IMG/VR virus record: IMGVR_UViG_3300032290_001492
Location: 1-50,526 of that record
DNA from: a virus
Lineage: Duplodnaviria > Caudoviricetes
Reading direction: 5' to 3' (one strand)
DNA: 50,526 nucleotides
Shown in pieces: positions 1 to 18,014 of the stretch. Numbering within the stretch: the stretch's first letter is position 1; each line of letters starts with the position of its first letter. The notes beneath the pieces are model-generated. The model saw nothing but the letters and a program-made list of their open reading frames with translations, had not been told where the DNA came from and did no database searches. The position numbers were made by a program, and so were the translations under genes.

Positions 1-1511
1 ACGTCGCCCGCCCCTGCAGCAGACCCGCGACCCAACAACTTGGACGCCGCCGAGACGTTCTGGATCTTGGCGTACGTCACCGCATCATTGGCGATGGTCG
101 CGGCGAACGAACCCGTGCCGGATCCAGTTACGTCTCCTGTTAGCGAAATAGTCTGGTCGCCCGTGTTGGTGCCGGAGCTGGTGCCAGAGAACGTACCGCT
201 TTGCGTGGCCAGGGTGCCGAGGCCCAGGGTCGTCCGTTGCGCCGCGGCATCCGCGTCGTCGAGCAACGCCTTGCCGGCGGCGGTGACGTCGCCGCCCATC
301 TTCGCCGTCGTGACGGCGCCGGCCGCGATTGTCGCGGCGAAGGACCCAGTGCCAGTCCCGGTGACGTCCCCGGAGAGCGAGATGGTCTGATCGCCGGTGT
401 TGGTCCCGCTCGAGGTTCCCGAGAACGTGCCGCTCTGCGTCGCCAGGGTGCCGAGGCCGAGCGTGGTCCGCTGCGCCGCGGCGTCGGCGTCGTCCAGGAG
501 GGCCTTGCCGGCTGTCGTGATGTCCTGGCCAAGCTTGGCCGTGCCGACGACGCCGTTCGCGATGGTGGTCGCGTTTGAGTTCGCGGCCGCCGTGACGTCG
601 CCGGTGAGCGCGGACCGGGTGAACGTCACCTGGCCGGCCGTGGTCCAGTTGGCCGCGACGCTGGTGCTGTCGCCGACCACCCGCTCCGCGGTCAGGGTGC
701 CGTCCGCCGTCTTGACCAGGTACTCGGCGCTGACCGGCGCTCCGCCACCACCTGCGCCGCCGAGGGCGGTGATCGCCTGTTTGATGCGGAGCGGAGAGAA
801 GGACCGGATGCCCGCCTCGGTGCCGGCCTCGGCCTCGGCTTGGCTGGCAGCCGCCTGGACCGCCTCGTACACTCCTGTGTGGAGGTGGTTGCCGGTGGCC
901 ACCTCGCCCGCGCCCGTGCCGGTGTTCTTGAGTGCCGCGTCGCCCAGGCTGGGGCGGCCGGAGAGGTCGGAGTAGGCGCCGCTGAAGCTCGAGGTGCCTG
1001 CGCCGATTACGGTGCGGGCCGCCGCGGCGTCCGCGGCGGTCAGGACCGAGCGGCCCGTGGCGGTGGAGTCAGAGATCTGGGTCGCCGGGTGCGTGTGGCT
1101 GGTGGGCGCCTTGGTGGCCAGGGCTGCAGCGATCGACGTGCCGCCCGGGTTCACGTCGGCCGAGGTGCCGTTCGTCGCCAGCTTGCCGTCCAGGGCATCC
1201 TGGAGGCCCGATACCGCGGAGATCGCGTGGGTGTGGCTAGTGGGCGCCTTGGTGGCCAGGGCGGCCGCAATCGCGGTTCCTGCGGGGTTCACGTCGGCCG
1301 CCTGGGCGGACGTCGCCAGCTTGCCGTCCAGGGCCGTCTGGAGGCCAGGGACATCGCCGAAGACGTGCGTGTGCGCGGAGACCGGGAGGTTGGCGACGGG
1401 GACGAACTTCGAGCCGTCCGTACCGAGGCTCGGCCGGACGATGTACATCAGGTCCGTCGTGAGGACTGGGGTCGAGACCTCGACCAGCTCGGTTAATTTT
1501 TTGTCGGCCAT
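1..1511 (-). CDS. Tail fibre protein, N-terminal part (runs off window start; absent from ORF track)
   Basis: ATG at 1511, 1 nt after the upstream stop; reads MADKKLTELVEVSTP...; HTH-containing repeats (SHTH..GLQxALDGK), AAAQRTTLGLG and GDVTG repeats typical of fibres; open to position 1. Confidence 0.85.
   Translation of the reverse strand, partial: MADKKLTELVEVSTPVLTTDLMYIVRPSLGTDGSKFVPVANLPVSAHTHVFGDVPGLQTALDGKLATSAQAADVNPAGTAIAAALATKAPTSHTHAISAVSGLQDALDGKLATNGTSADVNPGGTSIAAALATKAPTSHTHPATQISDSTATGRSVLTAADAAAARTVIGAGTSSFSGAYSDLSGRPSLGDAALKNTGTGAGEVATGNHLHTGVYEAVQAAASQAEAEAGTEAGIRSFSPLRIKQAITALGGAGGGGAPVSAEYLVKTADGTLTAERVVGDSTSVAANWTTAGQVTFTRSALTGDVTAAANSNATTIANGVVGTAKLGQDITTAGKALLDDADAAAQRTTLGLGTLATQSGTFSGTSSGTNTGDQTISLSGDVTGTGTGSFAATIAAGAVTTAKMGGDVTAAGKALLDDADAAAQRTTLGLGTLATQSGTFSGTSSGTNTGDQTISLTGDVTGSGTGSFAATIANDAVTYAKIQNVSAASKLLGRGSAAGAGD
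90..557. repeat. Two tandem ~234-bp (78-aa) fibre repeats
   Basis: AGKALLDDADAAAQRTTLGLGTLATQSGTFSGTSSGTNTGDQTISLxGDVT occurs twice; matching DNA at 217 and 451. Confidence 0.85.
1090..1370. repeat. Two tandem ~138-bp (46-aa) fibre repeats
   Basis: GLQxALDGKLAT...ADVNPxGTxIAAALATKAPTSHTH twice; matching DNA at 1095 and 1233. Confidence 0.85.
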
Positions 1512-1512
1512 G

Positions 1513-1917
1513 TCAGGAGATGGAGATGAAGCCCGGGTCGGTGAACTCGACCCGGAATGGGCCGTTCACCGACTGACGGTCGACACCCAGGTCGGCCACG
1601 CCCAGGACCCGGCCGCCCTTGCTCGCGTTGTAGATGATCACGCCGCGGGCGGCGATGTCGGCGTTGGTCCAGACGACCGCGTCGAAATTGATGACGGCCG
1701 AACCGCCGACCTTGTTGATCCGTCGACCAGTCAGCCGGCGACCGCCCCGCAGGTAGCCCTGGCCCACGACCTCGCCGGCGATCGGGTAACGCTCGGTCGT
1801 CGGGCCCGCGTCGGCGGCGGACGTCAGCAGCGCCAGGTAGTAGTCGTCGTCAGCCGCGTGGATCCCGTCGAGGAACTCGACCTTCGCCGACACGGGGATC
1901 GCCGTTTCGATGGGCAT
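1513..1917 (-). CDS. Fibre-associated structural protein (distant Gp80-like)
   Basis: 134 aa; YLALLTS...EVVGQGYLRGG...WTNADIAARGVIIYN pattern parallels 31709-32104; directly upstream of the fibre gene. Confidence 0.7.
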   Translation of the reverse strand: MPIETAIPVSAKVEFLDGIHAADDDYYLALLTSAADAGPTTERYPIAGEVVGQGYLRGGRRLTGRRINKVGGSAVINFDAVVWTNADIAARGVIIYNASKGGRVLGVADLGVDRQSVNGPFRVEFTDPGFISIS

Positions 1918-1922
1918 CCCGC

Positions 1923-1964
1923 AGGATAACCCACGCCCGCTAGGGGCGACAAGGGGGTAGCGGG
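1923..1964 (-). promoter_or_regulatory. Late promoter (box CCCGCTACCCCC, TTGTCG-N18-TATCCT), probably leaderless
   Basis: Shares box with four other late-gene upstream regions; ATG 5 nt after the -10. Confidence 0.6.
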
Positions 1965-4900
1965 TCAGTCTTGCCGCTCGTACCCGATGACGGCGCCGTT
2001 CTCGTCGCGCAGCAGCATGACCCGGCGCTTGGAGGTGCTCTTAGTCGGGCTTAGGACTTCGCGCAGCCGTCTGATCTGCTCGATGTCGAGCCCACGCGTC
2101 GTGGCGTCCTGGTCGCTCAATTCGCCGAGCTCACGGACGATGGCCCGGTAGCTGTCGATGCTTCGCTGAATGGAATCAGATACCCCTCGGCGATTTCCCG
2201 CCACCCCTCGATTCGCTCCGGCGTTATTGCCTCCAGCCCCTCCCGCTCCAGCACCCGTTCGATTTGGTTGAGCGTCAGGACTCTCACCCCCTCGGGTAAT
2301 TCGCTCACGGTCGGCCATGCGGCCCGGATTCTGCTCAAGCAGGCGTCGATTGTATTGTCGTCGAGAGTCATCGTCGGTGAATTCTTGGCGCAGGCGCATG
2401 AACGTCACCTGCGGTTCGGGAGTTGATGGATTCCAGCCCTCAGACTGCCAGAGGCGTAGGAGGTCTGCAAACTTAATGTCGGGGTTCTGACCAACCGCCT
2501 TCCAGTCGGCGTCAAAGTACTTCCGGTCGAAATTGACCCGGGCGCCGATCGGGCTGTCCACGTCATCCTCAAAGCCGAAGAAGTTGTACAGCTCGGGCAG
2601 GAACCCGGTCGGGTGCTTCGCGGAGAGGACCGCGAAGCAGTCGAGGTGCGTGGCCCCCTGCTCAATCGCCTTGGAGAGCACCGCGGGCGCCGCGACGCCT
2701 CGCGCGCCTGGCTCATTGTTGACGACCGAGGAGATGACCTTCTTGTCGCCGTCGTTTACGAGCGCGAAGTAGATGTCGGCGTTCTGCAGCTTGTAGACGG
2801 TCATATCGCCCGACTTCACCTTGGCCTTGACCATTTCCTCGGTGTACGGGGTTAGCGACGGCGCCGACTTGTTTTCGGCAAGGGCCCGAACAAACGCAGC
2901 GACGCCTACGCCACCTTCATTGACCGGGAGGTTGGTACTTGCCCAGGATCCGGTGGCTGCGGAAAGCGCCGCCCGCATCTGTTGCGCGTTCGTCGCAGTC
3001 ATGCTTTCAAGACGCGAAGCCGCCGCCGCCTTATCTCCGGTGATCTCTGCAACCGGCATCGACAGTGAGAACGACCGAGGGTCGGAAGACTCCGGCGAGT
3101 TTTGGGCCCGGCGGTTTTGAAAGAATTCCGAGAAGAGGATCTTGGAGGGGATGGGACGCTTGAACTTGCCCACGATCTGGCCTCGCACGCCGTAAGTATA
3201 GTCCGGGTGCTGCGGCGTGCCCTGCTCGCCAAGTTTCACCAGAGTGTTCTCGGGGTCGAGCTTGAGCACTAACAGTGCGTCGCCGTAGTCAACCCCGTGG
3301 AACTCGGGGTCCCGGACGGCGTCCAGAACCCGCTTGGACGGAGGGAATCCGTACTCCTCAAACTCAGCGCGTTCAAGCTGCCCCACAACAGCCTTGCGTG
3401 CGTCGAAGCTTAGTTCGCGAACCGCTACATTAAATGCCGGATCCGAAACCGAAGGCAGCTCAACTCCAAGATCCTTGATGGCGCGGTCTGCTTTCTTGAT
3501 TCCCTTCTGTGAGACCCGACCATCCTTGATGTATGCTTCAAGGGTGTTGATGAACGCCCGGACCGTCGAGCTGTTGCTCGCGTGGGTGTTCTGCGTCATC
3601 GCGACCACGACGGCGTAACCGTCGGTCTGCCGCATAAGATTCAGTTTCCGCGTGCCAATCCCCTTGCCTTCGTTCGCCCACACGACCCCAGCCTCTTTGT
3701 TGGGTGACATCAGTGGGAAGTTGGGCCCTCCGTACAGGTCAACAGGGACCACAGTCGCAGAGTCGATGCCCTGGTAGCGACCAACCGCAGTCAGGTCGGC
3801 TAGGATCGGGAATACCTTCTTCCCCTCGAGGTCTGACAGCGTCAACTGCGCGACACCCTGTACGTCCTTTGTGGGTGTGTAACCCTCGACCTCCGACTTT
3901 GGCTGCGTGGGGTCCGGACGGAACTGCAGCATCGCTTCCTTGATGTCGGCGTGAGACGTGTCGGTGCCCTCGAGACGGTCCCACACCGCGTGGTGGACGA
4001 TCGTCTGGTAGAACGGCTTGAGGTCCTCGGTCAGGAAGACTCCAAGGTTCGCCAGGCGGTCCCGGACCTCGAGCAGTATCTGTTTGTCGACGTTGAATTT
4101 CTGGTCGCCGTAATGGAGCTTGCGCTGACGGACGTCCACGGTCGGCAGGTCCCCGCGGCCCAGCATGCCAGACATGAATCCGACCTTCCCGAATGAGATG
4201 CCCTTGAAATTCTCACGGACAAATTCGGCGTATTCCTCAGTGGGCATGTTCTCGACGGCGTCGACGATGGCCTCTCCGACCTTCGACAGGTTCTCCGCCG
4301 CATTCCGCATGTATTCACGCTGGGTGTTGTAGAGCCCGAACGGCTTGAACTTCTCCAACATCGTGTTGGCGGCCGCTTCGTCGAACTCACCGCGCTCGGC
4401 CGCGTCCAGGAACGCTTGGCCTTCCTGGGTGCCCAGCAGTTTGGCAAAGGCATCCTCGGGGCGCAGCTTGTCCTCGTCGTGGGCGAGGTCCGACCAGCCG
4501 CCGCGGACCTTCTCGGTGGATAGTGCGCCCCGGTTGATGCTCGACGTGGTGATCAGGTAAGCCTTCACCACGTCCCGCGGGGTGATGCCCTTCGCACCCA
4601 TCTGCTGCATGAAGTAGCCGAACTTCTTGGCCCCATCGCCGACCTTTTCGAGCCCGAGTTGCTGGGCGACCTCGTCGATGTCCTTGGCCTCGGGCCGGTA
4701 GTTGAAGTCCGGGTTCTGCGGGTCGAACGTACCGACGTTGTCGGTGGCCGACTTGATCTGCGTGGGGTCGAAAGCGACGTAGAACGTCTGCGGCTCCGGA
4801 GTGATGGCGGCGTCGGCTGTGTGGTTCTTGATCACGATGCCGTCGAACCCAAGCTCTTTCATCTTGTCGACGAACTTGCGGTTTGTCTCGGGCGTACCTT

Positions 4901-7900
4901 GGTTTGTTTTGACCCCAGTAATGGATTCGTAGTCCCGGATGAGCTGCTCGAATCCCTTGTTACCCTCGTACACCGCCGGCTCCTGGATTGAGAGGTAGAC
5001 CTCGAGAAGTGGTCCGATGGTCTTGTTTCCCTGACTGTCGAACCCGCCGCGGAAGCTGTTGGCGTAGGATGGGTCTTCCGAGAACCACGACCCAATGCCG
5101 CCCCACTTCGAGTATTTAGCCTTCGATGGGTCGAAGACGGTGAACTCGGTCGGCGCCCCGTGGAAGACCCCCTTGGGCAGACCGTATCCGTCCACCACCT
5201 GAGATTTGCGAAAATAACGCTTGAACTCCGGAGTCTCGAGCTGCTCCGGCCGGTACATGTAGTCGGCCCGGTCTCCGTAGACCGGCTCCTTGACGAACAC
5301 GGTGTTGCCGATGCTCACGGCCTGCTTGCCGCCGACCACCGGCTCGTCGGTCCGCTTGTCGTAGAAGTACGAGTGGTCCAACGGGTCGAAGCCTACCGCC
5401 GTCCACTCGTTGATGTCTTTCGGAATTTCCCGGTCCGGGTTGAAGTTGCCCTCGACGGTCGCGATCGGGAACTTGTTCGACTCTCCCCGGCGGATTCGCT
5501 TCGCGCCGGCCTCGTTGGCCATGAACGTCGGGTTGTCGACGCTCACGATGTTGTCGTACCCGACGATCTTGCCGACCGTGTTGCCCTTAGCCTTCTGGTG
5601 GACCGCGACGACGTAGTTGCCCGTGCGTTGGAACGCGGGGATGTCGATACGCAGGCCAACCTCGGTCCCCGGTTCGAGCTGTCGAGCGGCACCGTACTTG
5701 GGCTTTTTCTCGGATGATAGGGCCTCCCTGGCGTCCTCGTCACTCGGAGGCACCGCGAACTCGACATTGGACCCGATGTCGCGGGAGACCTTGGGCGGTT
5801 CGGGCGACAGGTCCTTCACAAAAATCTCGCCCTTCGAGCCGTCTCGCATCTCGACGTAGGCGCGCTGCAGACCCTCGTTCTTACCCTTCGCGACGGTCAG
5901 AAGGTCGGAGATAAACTTAACCGGGGTGCCGCTCGGCGTGTACAGCACGTCGCCCGGGGAATAGTCGGTCCTCGGCGTGTTGCGGATGCGTTCCCGGATC
6001 TTCGATGCCATGTCGGCGCCGAAGCCCTCGAGCTGGCTGTTCTCCTCGGGCCGCAGGTTCTCGGAGACCCGGCCGTAGTCGGCCCGGAACGCCGAGCCCA
6101 AAATCTTCATCTGGTTGATCCGGTCGAGCCGGCGGGACTGGACGACGCCGAGCTTGCGGCCCTGGGCCTCGCTCATCCCCTGCAGCACCGGGTTGCGCTC
6201 ACGCTGCACTTGGGTGAGCTGACCGAACAGCGCATTGAGCGCGTCTCGCTTTTCTAGGCCGATGCCGTCGGCGCCCTCGCGCCCGGACACCGTGTTGTCG
6301 ATGTACCGGAGCAGGTCCGCCCGGGCGGCCCGCACGTCCCCGGCCCAAGGATTGAGCTGCCCCTTGCGGGCAAAGAACTCAAGGTTCCGCATCACCTTCT
6401 CCTGGCTGATCGTGTTGACTAGGATGCCGCCCGTGCGCGAGATCAGGATGCTGATCGGGGTCTCGACCCGGTTGGTCACCGCCCGCTGCTTGTACAGCCG
6501 GCTGCCGCGGGTCATCCCAGGCTGATAAACGAAGTGAGCCTCCGCCCCAGGCTTGTTCTTCAGCGTGTCGGTGATCATCGCCAGCATCTCAAGCTGGCGG
6601 GGGTTGTACTTGTTCTTGGCCTGGAGCGTCTCGAGGACGTCGGCCGGGATGTACTTGCCCGTGTAGATGGTCCGACCGTCCTTGGTCAGCGTTGCCCGTA
6701 CGCGGCCTGGCGAGATGTCCGGAGACGCATCCAGCGCCGTCAGCAAATCGTCGATGAACTCCTGCTCGCGGCGCTTGGCTTCCCGGGCGGTCAGGAACTT
6801 CCGCTTCCCGGTCTCCGGATCGATGTCCACGTCGAAGCCGGACGAGACCAGGTCCATCAGCTCCGGGTTGGACGCCAGCTCCTGCTCCGAGTAGATGGTC
6901 TCGATCTCCGAGAACGACTGCACCTGTCCGGCCCGCTCCGACAGGTTCATCAGGTCGTACTGCTTGACGACGTCGCGGACCGCCTTCCGCATCTCCGGAC
7001 TCATCTCCGTCTCGAACAGCCCGGTGCCCGAGGCGAATTGGCCGTCCTCACGGAACACGGCGCCGGTCGCCATAAGCATGCGCTGAAGGACGCCCGAATC
7101 CATGACCATCGGGGACCTGGCGAACTGTTCGATGATCGGGACTAGCGGGCGGGCGTTGCGGCGGAGGGCGCCGATGCCGGCGAACTCACCCGACACGTTT
7201 TGCGCCAGGAGCGAGGAGACGCCAGCCTCGGCGATGACCTCGTGCAGGATCAGCTCGGGGTTAGCCTCGTACCGGGTGGTGTCCTTGCCCGCAGCCCGGA
7301 GGGCCTGCAGGTACTCATCGCGGAACTTGGCAAAGTCGGCCTTGAACTGGACCGAGCCGTCCTTGATCTCGGTGAAGATGCCGGCGGAGTTGGTCGCCGC
7401 GTCGCCAAAGAACCGGCGGCGGATGTCTGCGGCGATGTCGGGGTTCCGGGCGATGTGGTGCGTGACCTCATGGCTCATTAGCGGCACCAGGGGGATCTTG
7501 GAGTCCAGGTCGATCGTCGCGACTCCGGTGCCGTCGGGGTTGACCACGTAGCTGCCGCCAGACCCCTTTTGCCGGACGAAGTCGATCACCAGGTTGGGGT
7601 TGGTCGCCTCGAACGTGGCAGCGGCGAGCTGCACGCCGGCCGGAGCCTCGTCGAACATGCGTTGCTGCATCCCGGTGCGACGGGAGCGGGCCTCGGCGAT
7701 GTCGCCGATCTGGCGGGCGCGAACCGCGGACGCGGACCGCTCGAGCTGGATCGTACGCAGGCCACCACCGAAGAAACCGCCGATAAAGCCCTCACCGGCG
7801 CCCTCCGCCGCGTCGCCCTGGAGCGTCCCGAACACGGCGCCGACCGCAGCGCCCTTGAACGCGCCATCGGTGGCCTCGGCTACTCCGCGGCCGATGCGGG

Positions 7901-9335
7901 AGATGAACTCGACGCGGTTCGCCTGCTGCGCTGCAAGGCGGGTCCAGCCGTCGGTCTCCTTAGCCAGGCGCTGGAAATATGGCGTCGACGACTCAGCGGT
8001 CCGCATCAGCTTGCCGGCCGTGGACACGTTCTCGCCTAGGTCCGCCACCCACTCGGCGGTCCGTTCGACGAAGCCAGGAGACACGCCCGTGGCCCGCTGC
8101 ATCATTTCGTCGCCCAGTTCCGCGGCCTCTTTGCTCTCGCCCAGGGCGCTCACCCGGCGATCACGCAACCAATCGACCGCGGCCTGGGTCTTCCGACCCG
8201 CCGTCGTGGCGGCCTCTCCGGCAAACTGGACCGCGGCGCCGGCAACCTGCTGGGAGACCGGGCGGGTGTTAGTAGCCAGGGCGGCCTCGTCGGCCCGCTT
8301 GGCCAGGTCCTGCTGGATGTTCTCGATGATGGCCTTCTGCTCGGCCATCTTGGCCGCATTCGCCGCGACGGCGTTCGTCTTCTCCAGGCTGTCGGCCATC
8401 GCATCGATCGCGATGCGCTCCTCCTGGAGGGCGGCGATCTTGCGGCCGGCCTCGGTCAGGGCGCCGAAGTTGGGGACCTTGTTGCCTGCCGCGGCGGCCG
8501 CAGCTCGGTAGAACCGGGCCTCCAGGGACCCGGCGTACTTGGTCGTGTTCTCGATCAGGTCCGCCACCTTGTCCGCGCCGACGCTGGCGGCCGCCTTCGC
8601 GGCGTTGCGGGCGCCGGCTGCGGTGACGGTGCGGCCCAGCTTCGCGCCCGCGGCGGCACCGCCGGCAAACGCCAGGTCGCCGACCTCGGCGAGGCCCGCC
8701 GCAGCCTTCATCAGCTCTTCGCGCTGCTCGGGCGCGTAGGCGCTCTGTAGGTCCATGCCACCGACCACGTAGTCGGCGATCATCAGCGCGTCCTCGGTGA
8801 TGTTGCTGATGTCGCGAAGCGTCCGGTCCCGGGCCTGCCGCACGGCGGCCACCTTGCGGCGGTTCTCGGGCGTGTCTTTGTACCCGACCGACATCTTGGT
8901 TCCGACTTCCTTGAACGCGCCCTTGACCGTCTCTCCGATGACGGGGTAGGTGCCGGCAAACATGGCGCCGGCCTGGACGGTCAGAGCGGTCTGCCGGCGG
9001 ATGGAATCCTTGAGGCCCTGGCCGTCGCCGACGATGGCGCTGCCGACGCCAGCCATGAGGTTCTGTCCGGTCATACTGGCGCCCGTGCCCAGATTGCTGA
9101 CCAGTTCGCCGGCTGCCTCGCCCGCCCGCTCCAGGAAACCCGGAGCGTTGGGGTCGCTGGCCTCCGCTTCTAGGACCGCCAGGTAGGCGTCCAGGTTCTC
9201 AGGCGCCAGGATATCCAGTTCGACCGGAGCCGGCTTGGTCAGCTCGGGAGCCAGCACCGCCAACTCTTCATCGGAGACCGGGATCGGGTCAGGACCGAGG
9301 TTGAGCTTCTGCGGGTTTTGGCTTGGTGCGTTCAT
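1965..9335 (-). CDS. Giant DNA-ejection/polyvalent protein (zincin-like peptidase, SH3-like, ART-PolyVal, HhH glycosylase-like, GNAT-like)
   Basis: 2456 aa, third gene of the ejection cluster; HEVTH at 7458-7472; VVD..G.P..VFHG...FDPTQIKSATDNVGTFDP; FKGISFGK...PTVD; GATHLDCF...LYNFFGF. Confidence 0.85.
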   Translation of the reverse strand: MNAPSQNPQKLNLGPDPIPVSDEELAVLAPELTKPAPVELDILAPENLDAYLAVLEAEASDPNAPGFLERAGEAAGELVSNLGTGASMTGQNLMAGVGSAIVGDGQGLKDSIRRQTALTVQAGAMFAGTYPVIGETVKGAFKEVGTKMSVGYKDTPENRRKVAAVRQARDRTLRDISNITEDALMIADYVVGGMDLQSAYAPEQREELMKAAAGLAEVGDLAFAGGAAAGAKLGRTVTAAGARNAAKAAASVGADKVADLIENTTKYAGSLEARFYRAAAAAAGNKVPNFGALTEAGRKIAALQEERIAIDAMADSLEKTNAVAANAAKMAEQKAIIENIQQDLAKRADEAALATNTRPVSQQVAGAAVQFAGEAATTAGRKTQAAVDWLRDRRVSALGESKEAAELGDEMMQRATGVSPGFVERTAEWVADLGENVSTAGKLMRTAESSTPYFQRLAKETDGWTRLAAQQANRVEFISRIGRGVAEATDGAFKGAAVGAVFGTLQGDAAEGAGEGFIGGFFGGGLRTIQLERSASAVRARQIGDIAEARSRRTGMQQRMFDEAPAGVQLAAATFEATNPNLVIDFVRQKGSGGSYVVNPDGTGVATIDLDSKIPLVPLMSHEVTHHIARNPDIAADIRRRFFGDAATNSAGIFTEIKDGSVQFKADFAKFRDEYLQALRAAGKDTTRYEANPELILHEVIAEAGVSSLLAQNVSGEFAGIGALRRNARPLVPIIEQFARSPMVMDSGVLQRMLMATGAVFREDGQFASGTGLFETEMSPEMRKAVRDVVKQYDLMNLSERAGQVQSFSEIETIYSEQELASNPELMDLVSSGFDVDIDPETGKRKFLTAREAKRREQEFIDDLLTALDASPDISPGRVRATLTKDGRTIYTGKYIPADVLETLQAKNKYNPRQLEMLAMITDTLKNKPGAEAHFVYQPGMTRGSRLYKQRAVTNRVETPISILISRTGGILVNTISQEKVMRNLEFFARKGQLNPWAGDVRAARADLLRYIDNTVSGREGADGIGLEKRDALNALFGQLTQVQRERNPVLQGMSEAQGRKLGVVQSRRLDRINQMKILGSAFRADYGRVSENLRPEENSQLEGFGADMASKIRERIRNTPRTDYSPGDVLYTPSGTPVKFISDLLTVAKGKNEGLQRAYVEMRDGSKGEIFVKDLSPEPPKVSRDIGSNVEFAVPPSDEDAREALSSEKKPKYGAARQLEPGTEVGLRIDIPAFQRTGNYVVAVHQKAKGNTVGKIVGYDNIVSVDNPTFMANEAGAKRIRRGESNKFPIATVEGNFNPDREIPKDINEWTAVGFDPLDHSYFYDKRTDEPVVGGKQAVSIGNTVFVKEPVYGDRADYMYRPEQLETPEFKRYFRKSQVVDGYGLPKGVFHGAPTEFTVFDPSKAKYSKWGGIGSWFSEDPSYANSFRGGFDSQGNKTIGPLLEVYLSIQEPAVYEGNKGFEQLIRDYESITGVKTNQGTPETNRKFVDKMKELGFDGIVIKNHTADAAITPEPQTFYVAFDPTQIKSATDNVGTFDPQNPDFNYRPEAKDIDEVAQQLGLEKVGDGAKKFGYFMQQMGAKGITPRDVVKAYLITTSSINRGALSTEKVRGGWSDLAHDEDKLRPEDAFAKLLGTQEGQAFLDAAERGEFDEAAANTMLEKFKPFGLYNTQREYMRNAAENLSKVGEAIVDAVENMPTEEYAEFVRENFKGISFGKVGFMSGMLGRGDLPTVDVRQRKLHYGDQKFNVDKQILLEVRDRLANLGVFLTEDLKPFYQTIVHHAVWDRLEGTDTSHADIKEAMLQFRPDPTQPKSEVEGYTPTKDVQGVAQLTLSDLEGKKVFPILADLTAVGRYQGIDSATVVPVDLYGGPNFPLMSPNKEAGVVWANEGKGIGTRKLNLMRQTDGYAVVVAMTQNTHASNSSTVRAFINTLEAYIKDGRVSQKGIKKADRAIKDLGVELPSVSDPAFNVAVRELSFDARKAVVGQLERAEFEEYGFPPSKRVLDAVRDPEFHGVDYGDALLVLKLDPENTLVKLGEQGTPQHPDYTYGVRGQIVGKFKRPIPSKILFSEFFQNRRAQNSPESSDPRSFSLSMPVAEITGDKAAAASRLESMTATNAQQMRAALSAATGSWASTNLPVNEGGVGVAAFVRALAENKSAPSLTPYTEEMVKAKVKSGDMTVYKLQNADIYFALVNDGDKKVISSVVNNEPGARGVAAPAVLSKAIEQGATHLDCFAVLSAKHPTGFLPELYNFFGFEDDVDSPIGARVNFDRKYFDADWKAVGQNPDIKFADLLRLWQSEGWNPSTPEPQVTFMRLRQEFTDDDSRRQYNRRLLEQNPGRMADRERITRGGESPDAQPNRTGAGAGGAGGNNAGANRGVAGNRRGVSDSIQRSIDSYRAIVRELGELSDQDATTRGLDIEQIRRLREVLSPTKSTSKRRVMLLRDENGAVIGYERQD
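2117..2371 (-). CDS. Nested out-of-frame small protein (candidate immunity protein)
   Basis: 84 aa, helical and acidic; third-position GC about 75% versus about 45% for the host frame over the same bases (hand count). Confidence 0.6.
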   Translation of the reverse strand: MTLDDNTIDACLSRIRAAWPTVSELPEGVRVLTLNQIERVLEREGLEAITPERIEGWREIAEGYLIPFSEASTATGPSSVSSAN

Positions 9336-10800
9336 CCGGGATTCTGAAGACTTTCTTGGTTTTAGGGTCCTGCACCAGGATCGTTCCTGGGGTCGTAGGG
9401 TCCGCTTTCAGTACTTTGTAGTTGCCGCCTTGATACGCCACGGTGTCGGAGGGTGTCGAGGGGCCGTCGGGCGAGATGCGTCGACTGCGGACGGAATCGC
9501 GATTCCAATAACGCGGGTCGACCTCGAGTCCGTTCTGCCGCGCCATAGTCGCCGTCTTGTTGAACAGTGCCTCACTGGAGGCACGATACCCAGCCTTGGC
9601 TCGAGCTCTGAAGAACGGGACCAAGGTCTTTGCGTCCGTCGGGTCTGCGGCAAACTTCTCAAGCATCGCCCACTCCGCCGGGGTCACTGCGCCAGGGCCG
9701 ACGATCGAGATTCGGTTCGTCGACTGGATCAGCTTGGCGAGCACTTCAGCCCGGCCGGCAAGTTCCGGACTAGTGATTTTCTTGGGATCCGCCTCGATCT
9801 CCTTGGCAATGTCTTCCAACTCGTAGATGAGGCCCATCGACGTTTCAGAGGCCGCGGATTCCTCGGCGATCTTGGCGGCAACGATGGCGCTGCGAGCTTT
9901 GCCGGCAAACCCAGGAACAGTCAGCGCGGTGTTGTCCTGCTCGAATTTCTGCTGCTGCATGCGCTGGTCATCAGCGGCGCGCTTGTCGGCCTCCCGCTTG
10001 CGGGCGAATTCGGTCATCGTCTGCACCGCCTTCTGGTACTCGGCCGAGAAGGTCGACCCAGGGACACGCAGGACGCTCTGGACTGCCGGATCCTGGAGGA
10101 TCGCCTCGACCTTGCTTACGTCGCCAGACACTCGGGCCACGTTCAGCAGCGACATCGCTTGTGCCTCCATCTGAGGGTCGGCCTTGCCCGTGGGGACAAA
10201 GAACATTGACGGAGGGGCGCCAGGGACTGGGCCAGGGCGCGTGATGGTCCGCAGCGCCTGCCCCGGGAACATCATCTGCGCCTCGGCCCGATTGGTGGCG
10301 TACTGGTTCGTCGAGATATAGTCCTGCAGCTTGCTGTTCTCGTTGGCGTTGATGAGCGCCTGGGTGCTCGACATCTGCTTACCCAGAATCTCCATCACCT
10401 GCGGATCCTTGGCGAACCGAGCGGCCTGCGTCTCGAGCTGGGTCAACAGCCGGCGTTGTTCAAACGGATCGGTCGTACCTTGAATAACCCGCAACGCCTC
10501 GTCGATATTCGGAGCCACGCGGTTGTACTCGCTGCGGACATCGGCCGCCTCACGCACCGTGCGCTCCGTCTCGCGGAACTTCATCTCCTGCATCGACAGT
10601 TCCGCCCGCATTTTCTGTTGCGTCAGGTCGGTGGTCGCCAGGTCTGCGGCATGTTTCTGTTGCCGCATCTCGAAATCAGTTTCGGCCATCTTGCGACGCT
10701 GCGCCCGCTCCATCAGCGAAGACGCGGCCTCCGCGGACTGAAGGGCGAATGTGGGGAGGGCGAGGCCGGCGTTGCCGGGCTGGAATTCAGCGAATGGCAT
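9289..10800 (-). CDS. Internal virion/ejection protein
   Basis: 503 aa, helical, Q/A/E-rich; lies between pilot-like and giant ejection genes. Confidence 0.7.
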   Translation of the reverse strand: MPFAEFQPGNAGLALPTFALQSAEAASSLMERAQRRKMAETDFEMRQQKHAADLATTDLTQQKMRAELSMQEMKFRETERTVREAADVRSEYNRVAPNIDEALRVIQGTTDPFEQRRLLTQLETQAARFAKDPQVMEILGKQMSSTQALINANENSKLQDYISTNQYATNRAEAQMMFPGQALRTITRPGPVPGAPPSMFFVPTGKADPQMEAQAMSLLNVARVSGDVSKVEAILQDPAVQSVLRVPGSTFSAEYQKAVQTMTEFARKREADKRAADDQRMQQQKFEQDNTALTVPGFAGKARSAIVAAKIAEESAASETSMGLIYELEDIAKEIEADPKKITSPELAGRAEVLAKLIQSTNRISIVGPGAVTPAEWAMLEKFAADPTDAKTLVPFFRARAKAGYRASSEALFNKTATMARQNGLEVDPRYWNRDSVRSRRISPDGPSTPSDTVAYQGGNYKVLKADPTTPGTILVQDPKTKKVFRIPDERTKPKPAEAQPRS

Positions 10801-16808: not shown

Positions 16809-18014
16809 TCAGTCAGCCGTAGCCTTGGTGAGGATCGTGTAGCCGAGCTCGGGGAAGATGGGCTTCGCACCGCACCGGATGTCGGTGAGGTAGTAGCCCA
16901 GGTTGCCCCGGTCGTTGTCACCCAGGAACGTGCGCTGGTTGATCCACTGGAACTCGCCCACGTAGTTCGACGGATCGAACTTCATTCCCGAGAACTGGGT
17001 CGGGTCGACGCTCTCGAACTTGGCCTCCCAAACCTGACGGCCCAGGATCGTGGCCACCTCGTACTCAGCCAGACCACCGTTAACCCCGTTGAGGTTGTAG
17101 GTGGCGCGGGCGGTGTAGCGGCGGCCGACGGTCGCGTTGGTGTTGGTCGTCGGGTAGATGGCGTTCGTCAGGGTCAGGTCTGCAGCGGAGGCGATGCCGC
17201 CGGTCTTGCCGAACCGGATGGGGAACAGGTCCACCACCGGCAGGAAGCCGTTGACCGCGCCGTCGTAGCCGAGGATCTCGAGGTTCTTCGCGGGATCGAA
17301 AAACTTCACCTGCTCCTTGGTGTCCGAGTTGGTGAACAGGCGCCCGATGATGCCAGGGCCGGCGATCAGGGGGAGCACCGGGCGGCCGCGGCTGTCGCGA
17401 CCCACGGCCAGCTCGTCAGCGAGACCGTTCCGGCAGAGCTGCCAGTAGATCTGCTTAAGGTGCTCCATGTTCAAGAAGTCGTTCGGCAGGGAGGCGCCGA
17501 TGCCGGTGAAGTCCGCGGCCGTAGACTCGGCGACGATCAGCGCGTTCGACGCGCGGGTCACCGCCTTGTTGTTCACGTTCGCGATATTCTGCAGGCGATA
17601 CCAGTCGCCCCACCACACGTTGATGTACTCGGACAGCGCCCGCTCGAAGCCGGCAACCGTTTGAGCGGCATCCACGGCGCGTTTCAAGTCGGACAAGCAG
17701 ACGGTGTCCGTATTGAAGGCGGTCTGGAAGAGCTTGAAGGTGCGTTGCAGTTCGCCGGGCTTGATCGTGGTGGGCGTCGGCTGGCACTGGGCGTTGCCCG
17801 TGCCGGTCGACATAACCACCTCGGCCAGGGCCGACGGGTAGGAGGTCGGCAGCTCATGGGTGAGCGTCCGGACCGTGGGAGTGCGACCTTCAGAGAGGTC
17901 GAACGCACTCATGGGAACCAGAGTGCGGAATGGATTGGAGCGCCAGAGCTTCTGGTACACAGTCTTGTGGAACTGGTTCCGTCGCTCCGAGAAGTAGGTA
18001 TTGATGTCAGCCAT
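16809..18014 (-). CDS. Major capsid protein
   Basis: 401 aa, after scaffold, own promoter and terminator, strong GC3 bias. Confidence 0.8.
   Translation of the reverse strand: MADINTYFSERRNQFHKTVYQKLWRSNPFRTLVPMSAFDLSEGRTPTVRTLTHELPTSYPSALAEVVMSTGTGNAQCQPTPTTIKPGELQRTFKLFQTAFNTDTVCLSDLKRAVDAAQTVAGFERALSEYINVWWGDWYRLQNIANVNNKAVTRASNALIVAESTAADFTGIGASLPNDFLNMEHLKQIYWQLCRNGLADELAVGRDSRGRPVLPLIAGPGIIGRLFTNSDTKEQVKFFDPAKNLEILGYDGAVNGFLPVVDLFPIRFGKTGGIASAADLTLTNAIYPTTNTNATVGRRYTARATYNLNGVNGGLAEYEVATILGRQVWEAKFESVDPTQFSGMKFDPSNYVGEFQWINQRTFLGDNDRGNLGYYLTDIRCGAKPIFPELGYTILTKATAD

Follow-up and report, generated by a model that had tools for sequence, protein, structure and literature searches.

In phage lambda and its relatives, the spanin gene Rz1 is embedded in the +1 frame of Rz, with a start of its own, and both genes are expressed from the same late mRNA. 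Overprinting is also a familiar feature of small phages, in which it is represented by B within A, E within D, and K in phiX174, and by L in MS2. The present analysis deals with a candidate gene of this type in a much larger genome, that of a virus of the Caudoviricetes (IMG/VR record IMGVR_UViG_3300032290_001492), of which positions 1 to 50,526 were analyzed. This whole stretch of 50,526 nucleotides (nt), with a GC content of 65.7%, is referred to here as the window. Within the window, a complete open reading frame (ORF) of 84 codons lies in the +1 frame of a giant ORF, on the same strand, directly behind a domain with a predicted GNAT fold. Judging from the sequence evidence, this ORF is very probably a genuine overlapping (overprinted) gene, which would make the stretch of DNA that carries it dual coding.

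The position of this ORF invites comparison with systems that combine an effector with a small partner protein. Toxins of the GNAT type that are neutralized by small helical partners exist, as in TacT-TacA and AtaT-AtaR, where the antitoxins carry a ribbon-helix-helix DNA-binding domain and are encoded by separate upstream genes. In the MuF-type head proteins of phages, C-terminal toxin domains are followed by separate downstream immunity ORFs. Polyvalent proteins that contain ART domains together with GNAT domains, the latter from one of two GNAT families, are described by Iyer et al. (2017, PMC5512222).

The nested reading frame

The giant ORF (P0001; 1965..9335, on the minus strand, like all the features mapped below) encodes a multi-domain protein of the polyvalent type with 2456 amino acids (aa), and hosts the nested ORF (P0002; 2117..2371). 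The latter begins with an ATG at 2371, ends in a TGA at 2119-2117, and encodes a protein of 84 aa that begins MTLDDNTIDACLSRIRAAWP. An earlier first-pass annotation, made from the sequence alone, had placed an 84-aa ORF at exactly this position, frame, and strand, which was confirmed here.

The base composition separates the two frames. The GC content at codon positions 1/2/3 is 0.58/0.52/0.72 in the nested ORF and 0.62/0.44/0.75 in its 68-codon core, as against 0.72/0.58/0.52 in the outer codons over the same bases, and the third-position value (GC3) is 0.76-0.90 in the ordinary genes of the window (n = 13). The GC3 values counted by hand in the first-pass annotation, of approximately 45% in the outer frame and 75% in the nested frame, were thus roughly right. 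Its description of the outer frame as low-complexity over the overlap also holds, given that the first 66 outer residues include 13 G, 12 R, 8 A, 7 N, and 5 D, as does that of the nested protein as acidic (pI 4.38, with 14 D+E vs. 7 K+R). The start context had been likened to that of the capsid gene. The two hexamers, CACCGACG-ATG in the nested ORF and TTCCGACG-ATG in the ORF at 16809-18014, are indeed equal, but the capsid identity of the latter is unconfirmed, as it has no match in PHROG or Pfam. The hexamer of the nested ORF is common to one of the 23 listed minus-strand starts, and is not a known signal.

Conservation in close and distant relatives

A protein search with the last 377 residues of the giant protein recovered 13 proteins, nine of which are close relatives (62-87% identity), and in all nine the outer frame continues without a stop across the low-complexity stretch. 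The loci available as DNA are four close ones (L006-L009) and six distant ones, the latter consisting of five viral contigs (L001-L005, 35-39% identity) and one genome bin (L010, 30%). In the close loci, the +1 ORF is intact in every case, with 84, 84, 83, and 83 codons and the ATG at the same position. The nested proteins of these loci are 99, 79, and 54% identical to that of the window, and the replacements are conservative. In all six distant loci, which have a GC content of 0.39-0.48 and a GNAT-like region with 30-39% identity, the +1 ORF spans 84-86 codons from stop to stop, lies directly after the GNAT-like domain, and retains a conserved methionine and a recognizable C-terminal motif. 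The nested protein has 84 aa in the window and 78-84 aa in the relatives with DNA, and in ten of the ten loci no more than a few codons separate the nested start from the end of the GNAT-like domain. Interruption of the nested frame by stops in homologues, which the first-pass annotation had named as evidence that would count against its proposal, was found in none of the ten.

The similarity of the two clades extends to the nested protein itself. The profile of the nested family matches exactly the +1 frame of the distant loci, with E values of 8.7e-5, 1.4e-4, 1.8e-3, and 4.6e-3, together with partial matches at 5e-3 and 0.13. The alignment of the nested proteins of the two clades by hhalign has a probability of 92.9% and an E value of 3.8e-7 over 35 columns. 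In the cultured-phage collection, neither the C-terminal region encoded in the window nor P0002 had a match at the DNA or protein level, nor did the family members P0029, P0036, and P0023, and the scans of IMG/VR with P0002, A1, A5, and A6 found no relatives.

One pair of outer proteins, P0004 and P0005, is peculiar in that the flanks are identical over the compared C-terminal region, while a stretch of 26 linker residues inside the overlap is wholly different, at equal length. This difference may represent a local exchange of the middle part of the nested gene.

Selection in the two frames

Within the 68-codon core of the nested ORF, the substitutions are shifted to codon position 3 of the nested frame. 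Between the window and L007, the differences at outer codon positions 1/2/3 number 18, 8, and 7 of 68 in the core (2168..2371), compared with 44, 30, and 110 of 248 in the 250 codons upstream. The Fisher p value for outer position 3, core versus upstream, is 7e-8 in this pair, and 0.003 and 1.5e-4 in the other two pairs analyzed. The ratio of non-synonymous to synonymous change (dN/dS, by the NG86 method) in the core of the three pairs is 0.19, 0.70, and 0.61 in the +1 frame, and 1.43, 1.53, and 1.96 in the outer frame, which has values of 0.19-0.24 upstream. The low-GC clade shows the same tendency, with 0.24-0.45 in the nested frame versus 0.88-1.59 in the outer one.

Because ordinary dN/dS is biased in overlaps, the sites were also classed by their effect in both frames. 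In this overlap-aware count, the rate of outer-synonymous changes that replace a residue of the nested protein is 0.15-0.30 in the core, as against 0.98-1.11 in the control. The outer synonymous rate is lowered 4-7 fold in the 68-codon core, where the outer omega (the dN/dS of this count) is 0.68-1.73, compared with 0.16-0.21 in the control. The nested omega of the closest pair is 0.19. When the gene is scanned in sliding windows of 68 codons, all of the top five windows come from the nested core in each of the three pairs (of 198, 162, and 162 windows). A possible second frame switch near alignment columns 210-225, in two windows of one pair that alone show a reversed sign outside the core, was rejected as an alignment artifact, L007 being without the window's ART segment.

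Part of the stretch is present in 20 of the 22 sequencing runs listed, each from a different study, and mostly of freshwater or riverine metagenomes. Half or more of the sampled words were found in three of these 20 runs, and less than half in the other 17. Variants were taken from the contigs of four public runs, from different studies, mapped on the stretch, and were counted among the variants listed. In the core, 8 of 11 are synonymous in the nested frame and 2 of 11 in the outer frame, and on the GNAT side, 15 of 23 are synonymous in the outer frame and 1 of 23 in the +1 frame. The proposal of the first-pass annotation, in which the nested frame is the one under selection and the outer frame is mainly just kept open, is strongly supported by the position-3 shift, by the dN/dS of both clades, and by these population variants. 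The checks that it had suggested, frame-specific dN/dS and ORF conservation in homologues, likewise favor dual coding.

The outer frame over the overlap consists of a linker rich in R, G, N, and A (2157..2333), which is predicted to be disordered and is kept open, as seen in its composition, its dN/dS, and a predicted local distance difference test (pLDDT) score below 50 at residues 173-231 of a 294-aa AlphaFold2 (AF2) model. The linker is followed by a helical peptide that forms the conserved C-terminus of the giant protein (2052..2171), and the first part of this peptide overlaps the poorly conserved tail of the nested ORF. The peptide has predicted helices at model residues 227-266, a frame-0 dN/dS of 0.44-0.51, and counterparts in L001-L005 and L010. 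As it is conserved in frame 0, the outer frame must be read through the overlap. To judge from the sequences, the outer frame would be constrained here mainly to be free of stops, hydrophilic, and flexible.

A family of small proteins predicted to be helical

The relatives of the nested protein are themselves small. One protein search recovered four of them, and a profile search of 1.84 billion representatives returned 22 matches, of which 19 have 50-160 aa; the three long matches (P0030, P0037, and P0040) are repeat proteins, and were dropped as spurious. Neither protein search recovered a long protein with the nested domain as an in-frame part. Matches only in small proteins imply that this domain is never read in frame with the giant protein. 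Most of the small proteins are found on short contigs, and some on longer contigs of 10 kb (P0017), 13.7 kb (P0024), 12 kb (P0046), and 6 kb (P0028). A bias toward short contigs is expected if automated gene prediction picks out the nested ORF only in cases of a truncated giant gene. One member known only as a protein, P0020 (160 aa), contains two tandem copies of the domain, and the hidden gene may thus have been duplicated in some relative.

The AF2 model of the nested protein, based on an alignment of 20 sequences, has a pLDDT of 88.9 and a predicted template modeling score (pTM) of 0.72, with 67 of the 84 residues at 90 or above. Helices are predicted at residues 5-18, 27-44, and 51-74, with no strand, and the conserved core (2168..2371), which is also the segment of the selection switch, is predicted to form a three-helix bundle. 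No match was found in Pfam, PHROG, PADLOC, NCBIfam, or the PDB sequences, and Foldseek with the nested model returned no match at an E value of 0.001 or better in the PDB or BFVD. The best VIA-align score, Z 6.1 for a DUF1048 protein, is below the chance level of helical bundles, and the ESM Atlas provided no usable match. The nested family is an unannotated protein family, with no recognized relatives in the families or structures searched.

Dual coding, chance, and frameshifting

An open frame of this length is, by itself, not significant in the window. Synonymous resampling that preserves the outer protein leaves the +1 frame open in 63% of cases, and the giant ORF has six stop-free +1 runs that are as long as, or longer than, the nested ORF. 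This is what would be expected if the frame were open by chance in GC-rich DNA, in which case the low outer-synonymous rate would be due to an RNA or DNA element, or to compensated frameshifts in the assembly. However, the conservation of the ORF and the selection switch exceed chance. The signal is frame-specific, as the listed population variants of the core illustrate, and a confident fold was obtained from only 20 sequences. The ORF also persists at a GC content of 0.39, where chance falls to 0.005: the probability of an open +1 frame given the outer protein is 0.005 for L001 and 0.10 for L003, and the nested +1 run of these two loci has 83 codons, with the next-longest runs at 45 and 41. 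In the reverse calculation, the outer frame was open given the nested protein in 0 of 10,000 trials for L001, L003, and L010, with probabilities of 0.11 for the window, 0.09 for L007, and 0.05 for L008. Chance is excluded for both open frames in the low-GC loci. The RNA fold around the nested start is not unusual (z -0.22), which speaks against an RNA element, and assembly errors are ruled out by the intact outer frame in nine of nine close proteins and ten of ten loci, from independent assemblies. The chance explanation, in any of these forms, is largely refuted, and its probability is close to nil.

A rather different possibility is that no separate gene exists, and that ribosomes shift to the +1 frame near 2371, so that the giant protein would be shortened and would carry the three-helix domain at its C-terminus. 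Frameshifting gives rise to alternative C-termini in several phage structural genes, and the +1 frame of L007 is open well upstream of the ATG. In the window, by contrast, a TGA stop in the +1 frame (2405..2407) lies 11 codons upstream of the nested ATG, with no ATG, GTG, or TTG between them, and comparable stops lie two codons upstream in L008/L009, and five in L001-L005 and L010. Stops at 2-11 codons in nine of the ten loci, L007 being the exception, make entry by frameshifting unlikely. The position of the ATG is conserved, in addition, in all ten loci and in the full-length members known only as proteins, and the start has features of its own. The RNA around the nested start, with 30 nt on each side (2341..2401), is predicted to be unstructured, with a minimum free energy (MFE) of -4.9 kcal/mol. 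This makes it the least structured of the 70 internal ATGs of the giant ORF (61 nt each; median MFE -17.6), and similar to the 16 annotated gene starts, which have a median of -8.2 kcal/mol over 61 nt. The nested start also ranks first for least structure in L006, L007, and L009 (of 31, 36, and 25), and GGAG occurs at -12..-9 of the nested ATG in six of the six low-GC loci. No conserved slippery motif was noticed, with no systematic search having been made. A frameshift within the first codons would be compatible with the sequence, but the conserved ATG, the upstream stops, and the start signals argue for initiation, and frameshifting is considered very unlikely.

The 33 listed ORF starts of the window (e.g., 9335, 18014, and 12500) are mostly without a Shine-Dalgarno-like motif, and have A/C-rich, weakly structured leaders, which suggests Shine-Dalgarno-independent initiation in the phage as well as in its host. 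One RNA library yielded contigs over 2030-2317, a coverage that does not show transcription.

A number of observations weigh against dual coding. The DNA loci represent three high-GC lineages and about four low-GC ones. The overlap-aware nested omega is 0.76 and 0.67 in the two distant pairs, in or near the upstream control range of 0.72-1.15, and is convincing for the closest pair only. For the two distant pairs, the case depends on the lowered outer-synonymous rate, together with the profile and fold evidence. There are, moreover, 16 further variants outside the population counts given above. The start regions of the low-GC loci are not unusually unstructured (ranks 26/53, 3/49, 17/44, and 27/81), no sigma-70-type promoter was found in 1400-3400, and the translation of the nested ORF is inferred from the sequence.

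The persistence of the open frame in close and distant loci, the phase switch, the foldability of the product, and the start signals nonetheless combine in favor of dual coding. In the mechanism proposed here, the linker DNA, read one base out of frame on the same strand, would encode a three-helix protein with its own ATG. Purifying selection would act mainly on the nested frame, and the outer frame would be kept open so that ribosomes can reach the C-terminal peptide. A single late mRNA would serve for both products. Translation of the nested protein most likely has a start of its own, through the unstructured start region in the window phage and, in its low-GC relatives, possibly through the GGAG 9-12 nt upstream.

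The GNAT-like domain

The domain that precedes the nested gene (2376..2849) covers approximately residues 2163-2320 of the giant protein. The AF2 model of the last 294 aa of this protein has a pLDDT of approximately 70-85 over model residues 1-160, and all 50 of the neighbors listed by VIA-align are GNAT-type acyltransferases, with Z scores of 6.9-9.0 over 95-127 aligned residues, the top score being that of an uncharacterized GNAT. The Foldseek rows are also nearly all GNAT, but with E values of 0.03 or worse. At the sequence level, the region has no Pfam match even at an E value of 10 (nine members searched) and no NCBIfam match. A PDB profile search recovered no GNAT chain, and its only matches were two chance rows (E 0.21) that align the low-complexity stretch with a ribosomal protein. 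The first-pass description of a GNAT-like domain at this point is therefore upheld by the predicted fold, without a match to any sequence model of Pfam or NCBIfam or to a PDB sequence. An invariant stretch, E-P-G-A-R-G-x-A-x-P-A-V, is found at the position expected for the acetyl-CoA pyrophosphate-binding loop, and seems a poor fit to the usual pattern of that loop.

A search for solo GNAT-like domains among shorter proteins recovered only three fragments, on contigs of 1.5-2 kb, and one protein of 795 aa. In the cultured-phage collection, the low-GC GNAT region matched only the phages Caron and UtzChips. The match in the Microbacterium phage Caron has 33% identity over 104 residues (E 1e-4), and forms the C-terminal end of an annotated minor capsid protein (L011; record positions 3765-5342), which has Pfam VG15 at its N-terminus. 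The Caron locus has no linker, nested ORF, or small downstream gene after the GNAT-like domain, and the scaffolding gene follows after 165 nt. The fusion to a minor capsid protein supports the idea that the GNAT-like domain may be delivered with the capsid contents.

Possible functions of the nested protein

The first-pass annotation had proposed that the nested gene encodes an immunity protein. This remains the most specific hypothesis, and the single most likely specific mechanism, but a tentative and rather doubtful one: the nested protein would be a putative immunity-like inhibitor of the adjacent GNAT-like domain, protecting the producing cell, or late synthesis, until packaging. The position of the nested start at the end of this domain in every locus would fit an effector and its inhibitor, as would the necessary co-transcription of the two products. 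The fold neighbors of the domain include TacT2-TacA2, TacT3, and AtaT (Z 7.7, 7.5, and 6.9), toxins of the kind neutralized by small helical partners; in the fold ranking, however, dozens of ordinary acetyltransferases score equally well. Codon-position GC is typical of the genome in the nested frame but not in the linker, which fits an older downstream gene that was later read through, and Caron shows the corresponding state, with the GNAT-like domain as the C-terminus. Caron, however, also has the domain without a partner. The co-occurrence of the nested protein with the GNAT-like domain in ten of ten loci follows from the physical nesting, and is not independent evidence. Among antitoxin and immunity families the nested protein has no match, and it lacks the strand needed for a ribbon-helix-helix, and the lack of any family or fold evidence for its function, in the searches made, also counts against an inhibitor. 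No charge complementarity was found between the nested protein and the GNAT side, which is acidic in both clades.

There is about an even chance that the nested gene is real and that its task is unrelated to GNAT inhibition. The product may be an accessory protein (for host takeover, anti-defense, or regulation), or may aid the C-terminal peptide as a chaperone or in packaging. The products of overprinted viral genes are usually accessory proteins with no relation to the older frame (PMC8227390), and the overlap coincides exactly with a predicted disordered stretch, tolerant of a second frame. The net charge of the nested protein is not conserved, with -7 in the high-GC clade, +1 to +2 in L001, L003, and L005, and -4 in L010, while the GNAT side stays acidic. 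Weak fold neighbors include region 2 of sigma factors and anti-sigma complexes, at a Z score of approximately 5, which is not significant. There is, however, no positive pointer to any particular alternative function, and a de novo origin of the nested gene fits poorly, as it is the nested frame, and not the outer one, that has the genome-typical composition. Within this range, a chaperone or packaging role is quite improbable, and an unrelated accessory role takes the probability that remains after GNAT inhibition and the chaperone or packaging role.

The inhibitor hypothesis can be extended to an evolutionary scenario, which is speculative and, on balance, unlikely. An effector and its inhibitor would share one stretch of DNA, in two frames, within the gene of a polyvalent protein delivered with the virion. 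The effector would have lost its stop, and reading through to a downstream peptide would have engulfed a downstream gene of the immunity type, and the pair would since have been passed on jointly in phages that differ widely in GC content and host.

The carrier protein and its surroundings

The giant protein contains an ART-PolyVal domain at residues 1382-1537 (Pfam, E 7.7e-23), a Phage_L5_gp82 domain at residues 1248-1344 (Pfam, E 1.3e-6), and an H-E-x-x-H motif at residues 622-626 that is invariant in ten homologues, and the ORFs that adjoin the giant ORF have PHROG matches to tail, head-fiber, and terminase proteins. Taken together, these features give the giant ORF a polyvalent, virion-type appearance. 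Several conflict-type domains are combined in one polypeptide, namely ART-PolyVal, the L5 gp82-like domain, and the GNAT-like fold, and the product thus resembles the polyvalent proteins of PMC5512222.

Counted from its first ATG (9335), the giant ORF shares 47 nt with the end of the ORF upstream of it (9289-10800), and the true start of the protein may be further inside the ORF. The ART-PolyVal segment of the window (approximately 4900-5200) is replaced in L007 by unrelated sequence, and the precomputed ART family is absent from P0004, P0006, and P0009 among the close homologues (P0003-P0011); it appears that domains of the giant protein have been exchanged. In L006, the part of the gene from the GNAT-like domain onward is 97% identical to that of the window, with sharp divergence upstream, and loose contig ends are found at 2873, with the same continuing sequence, in three of three DNA runs mapped onto the window. 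This position looks like a recombination boundary, and the block composed of the GNAT-like domain, the nested gene, and the C-terminus looks like a mobile module.

On the other side of the giant gene, the minus-strand ORF at 3-1511, which is open at one end, contains near-identical blocks of approximately 240 nt, seen by eye at roughly 60-300 and 300-540. It has Pfam matches to PTR and DUF5907 repeats and PHROG matches to head-fiber and tail proteins, and its product is probably a fiber. The source label of the close homologue P0008 is an Ilumatobacteraceae metagenome bin, which is a lead to the host group only. The host itself seems to be uncultured.

Significance and comparison with known systems

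Fully nested same-strand genes are rarely recognized in tailed double-stranded DNA (dsDNA) phages because gene callers discard them. The gene described here is long, at 84 codons, is predicted to be well folded, is widespread among the metagenome runs listed, and is kept between phage groups that share only 30-39% identity in the carrier domain. Its product represents an unannotated protein family, and the gene provides a natural example of a disordered linker that hosts a second gene, and supplies a candidate partner for a virion-delivered effector module. The low-complexity stretches of giant phage proteins thus merit a look in their other frames, and 'hypothetical' small proteins on short metagenome contigs may often be nested genes of this type.

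Among the systems with toxins or effectors, TacT-TacA and AtaT-AtaR resemble the locus in that a GNAT fold is accompanied by a small, mostly helical protein encoded beside it, with fold neighbors at Z 6.9-7.7. The nested protein differs in having three helices, no strand, and no match in Pfam, NCBIfam, or PADLOC. The likeness to the MuF-type proteins lies in an effector-like domain at the end of a phage head-associated protein, as in the minor capsid protein of Caron; here, however, the small gene is inside the reading frame of the carrier, and Caron has no partner. The described polyvalent proteins are similar in the presence of ART-PolyVal and a GNAT-like domain in one polypeptide, encoded among late structural genes. 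They differ in that a nested gene is not described in PMC5512222, from which the words 'frameshift' and 'overlap' are absent. Full-text searches of the literature outside subscription journals likewise brought up no account of such a gene within a polyvalent or giant virion protein.

Where the arrangement of the genes is concerned, the genes of phiX174 and MS2 likewise overlap on one strand in different frames, and constraint on one frame goes together with relaxation of the other. Their genomes, however, are tiny and limited in size, whereas the phage genome considered here has at least 50 kb, and compaction is not an obvious driver. The Rz/Rz1 pair is similar in that a complete gene lies on the same strand, in the +1 frame, inside a larger gene of a tailed dsDNA phage, and the products of Rz and Rz1 work together. 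The differences are that Rz1 is a secreted lipoprotein and Rz a membrane lysis protein, whereas the nested protein is predicted to be a soluble three-helix protein in a giant virion-type carrier, and to our knowledge no relation of sequence or fold links the two cases. Nested same-strand genes of phages are, then, already known from Rz/Rz1 and phiX174, and what appears to be new here, in the light of the literature searched, is the location of such a gene within a giant polyvalent protein of the virion type.

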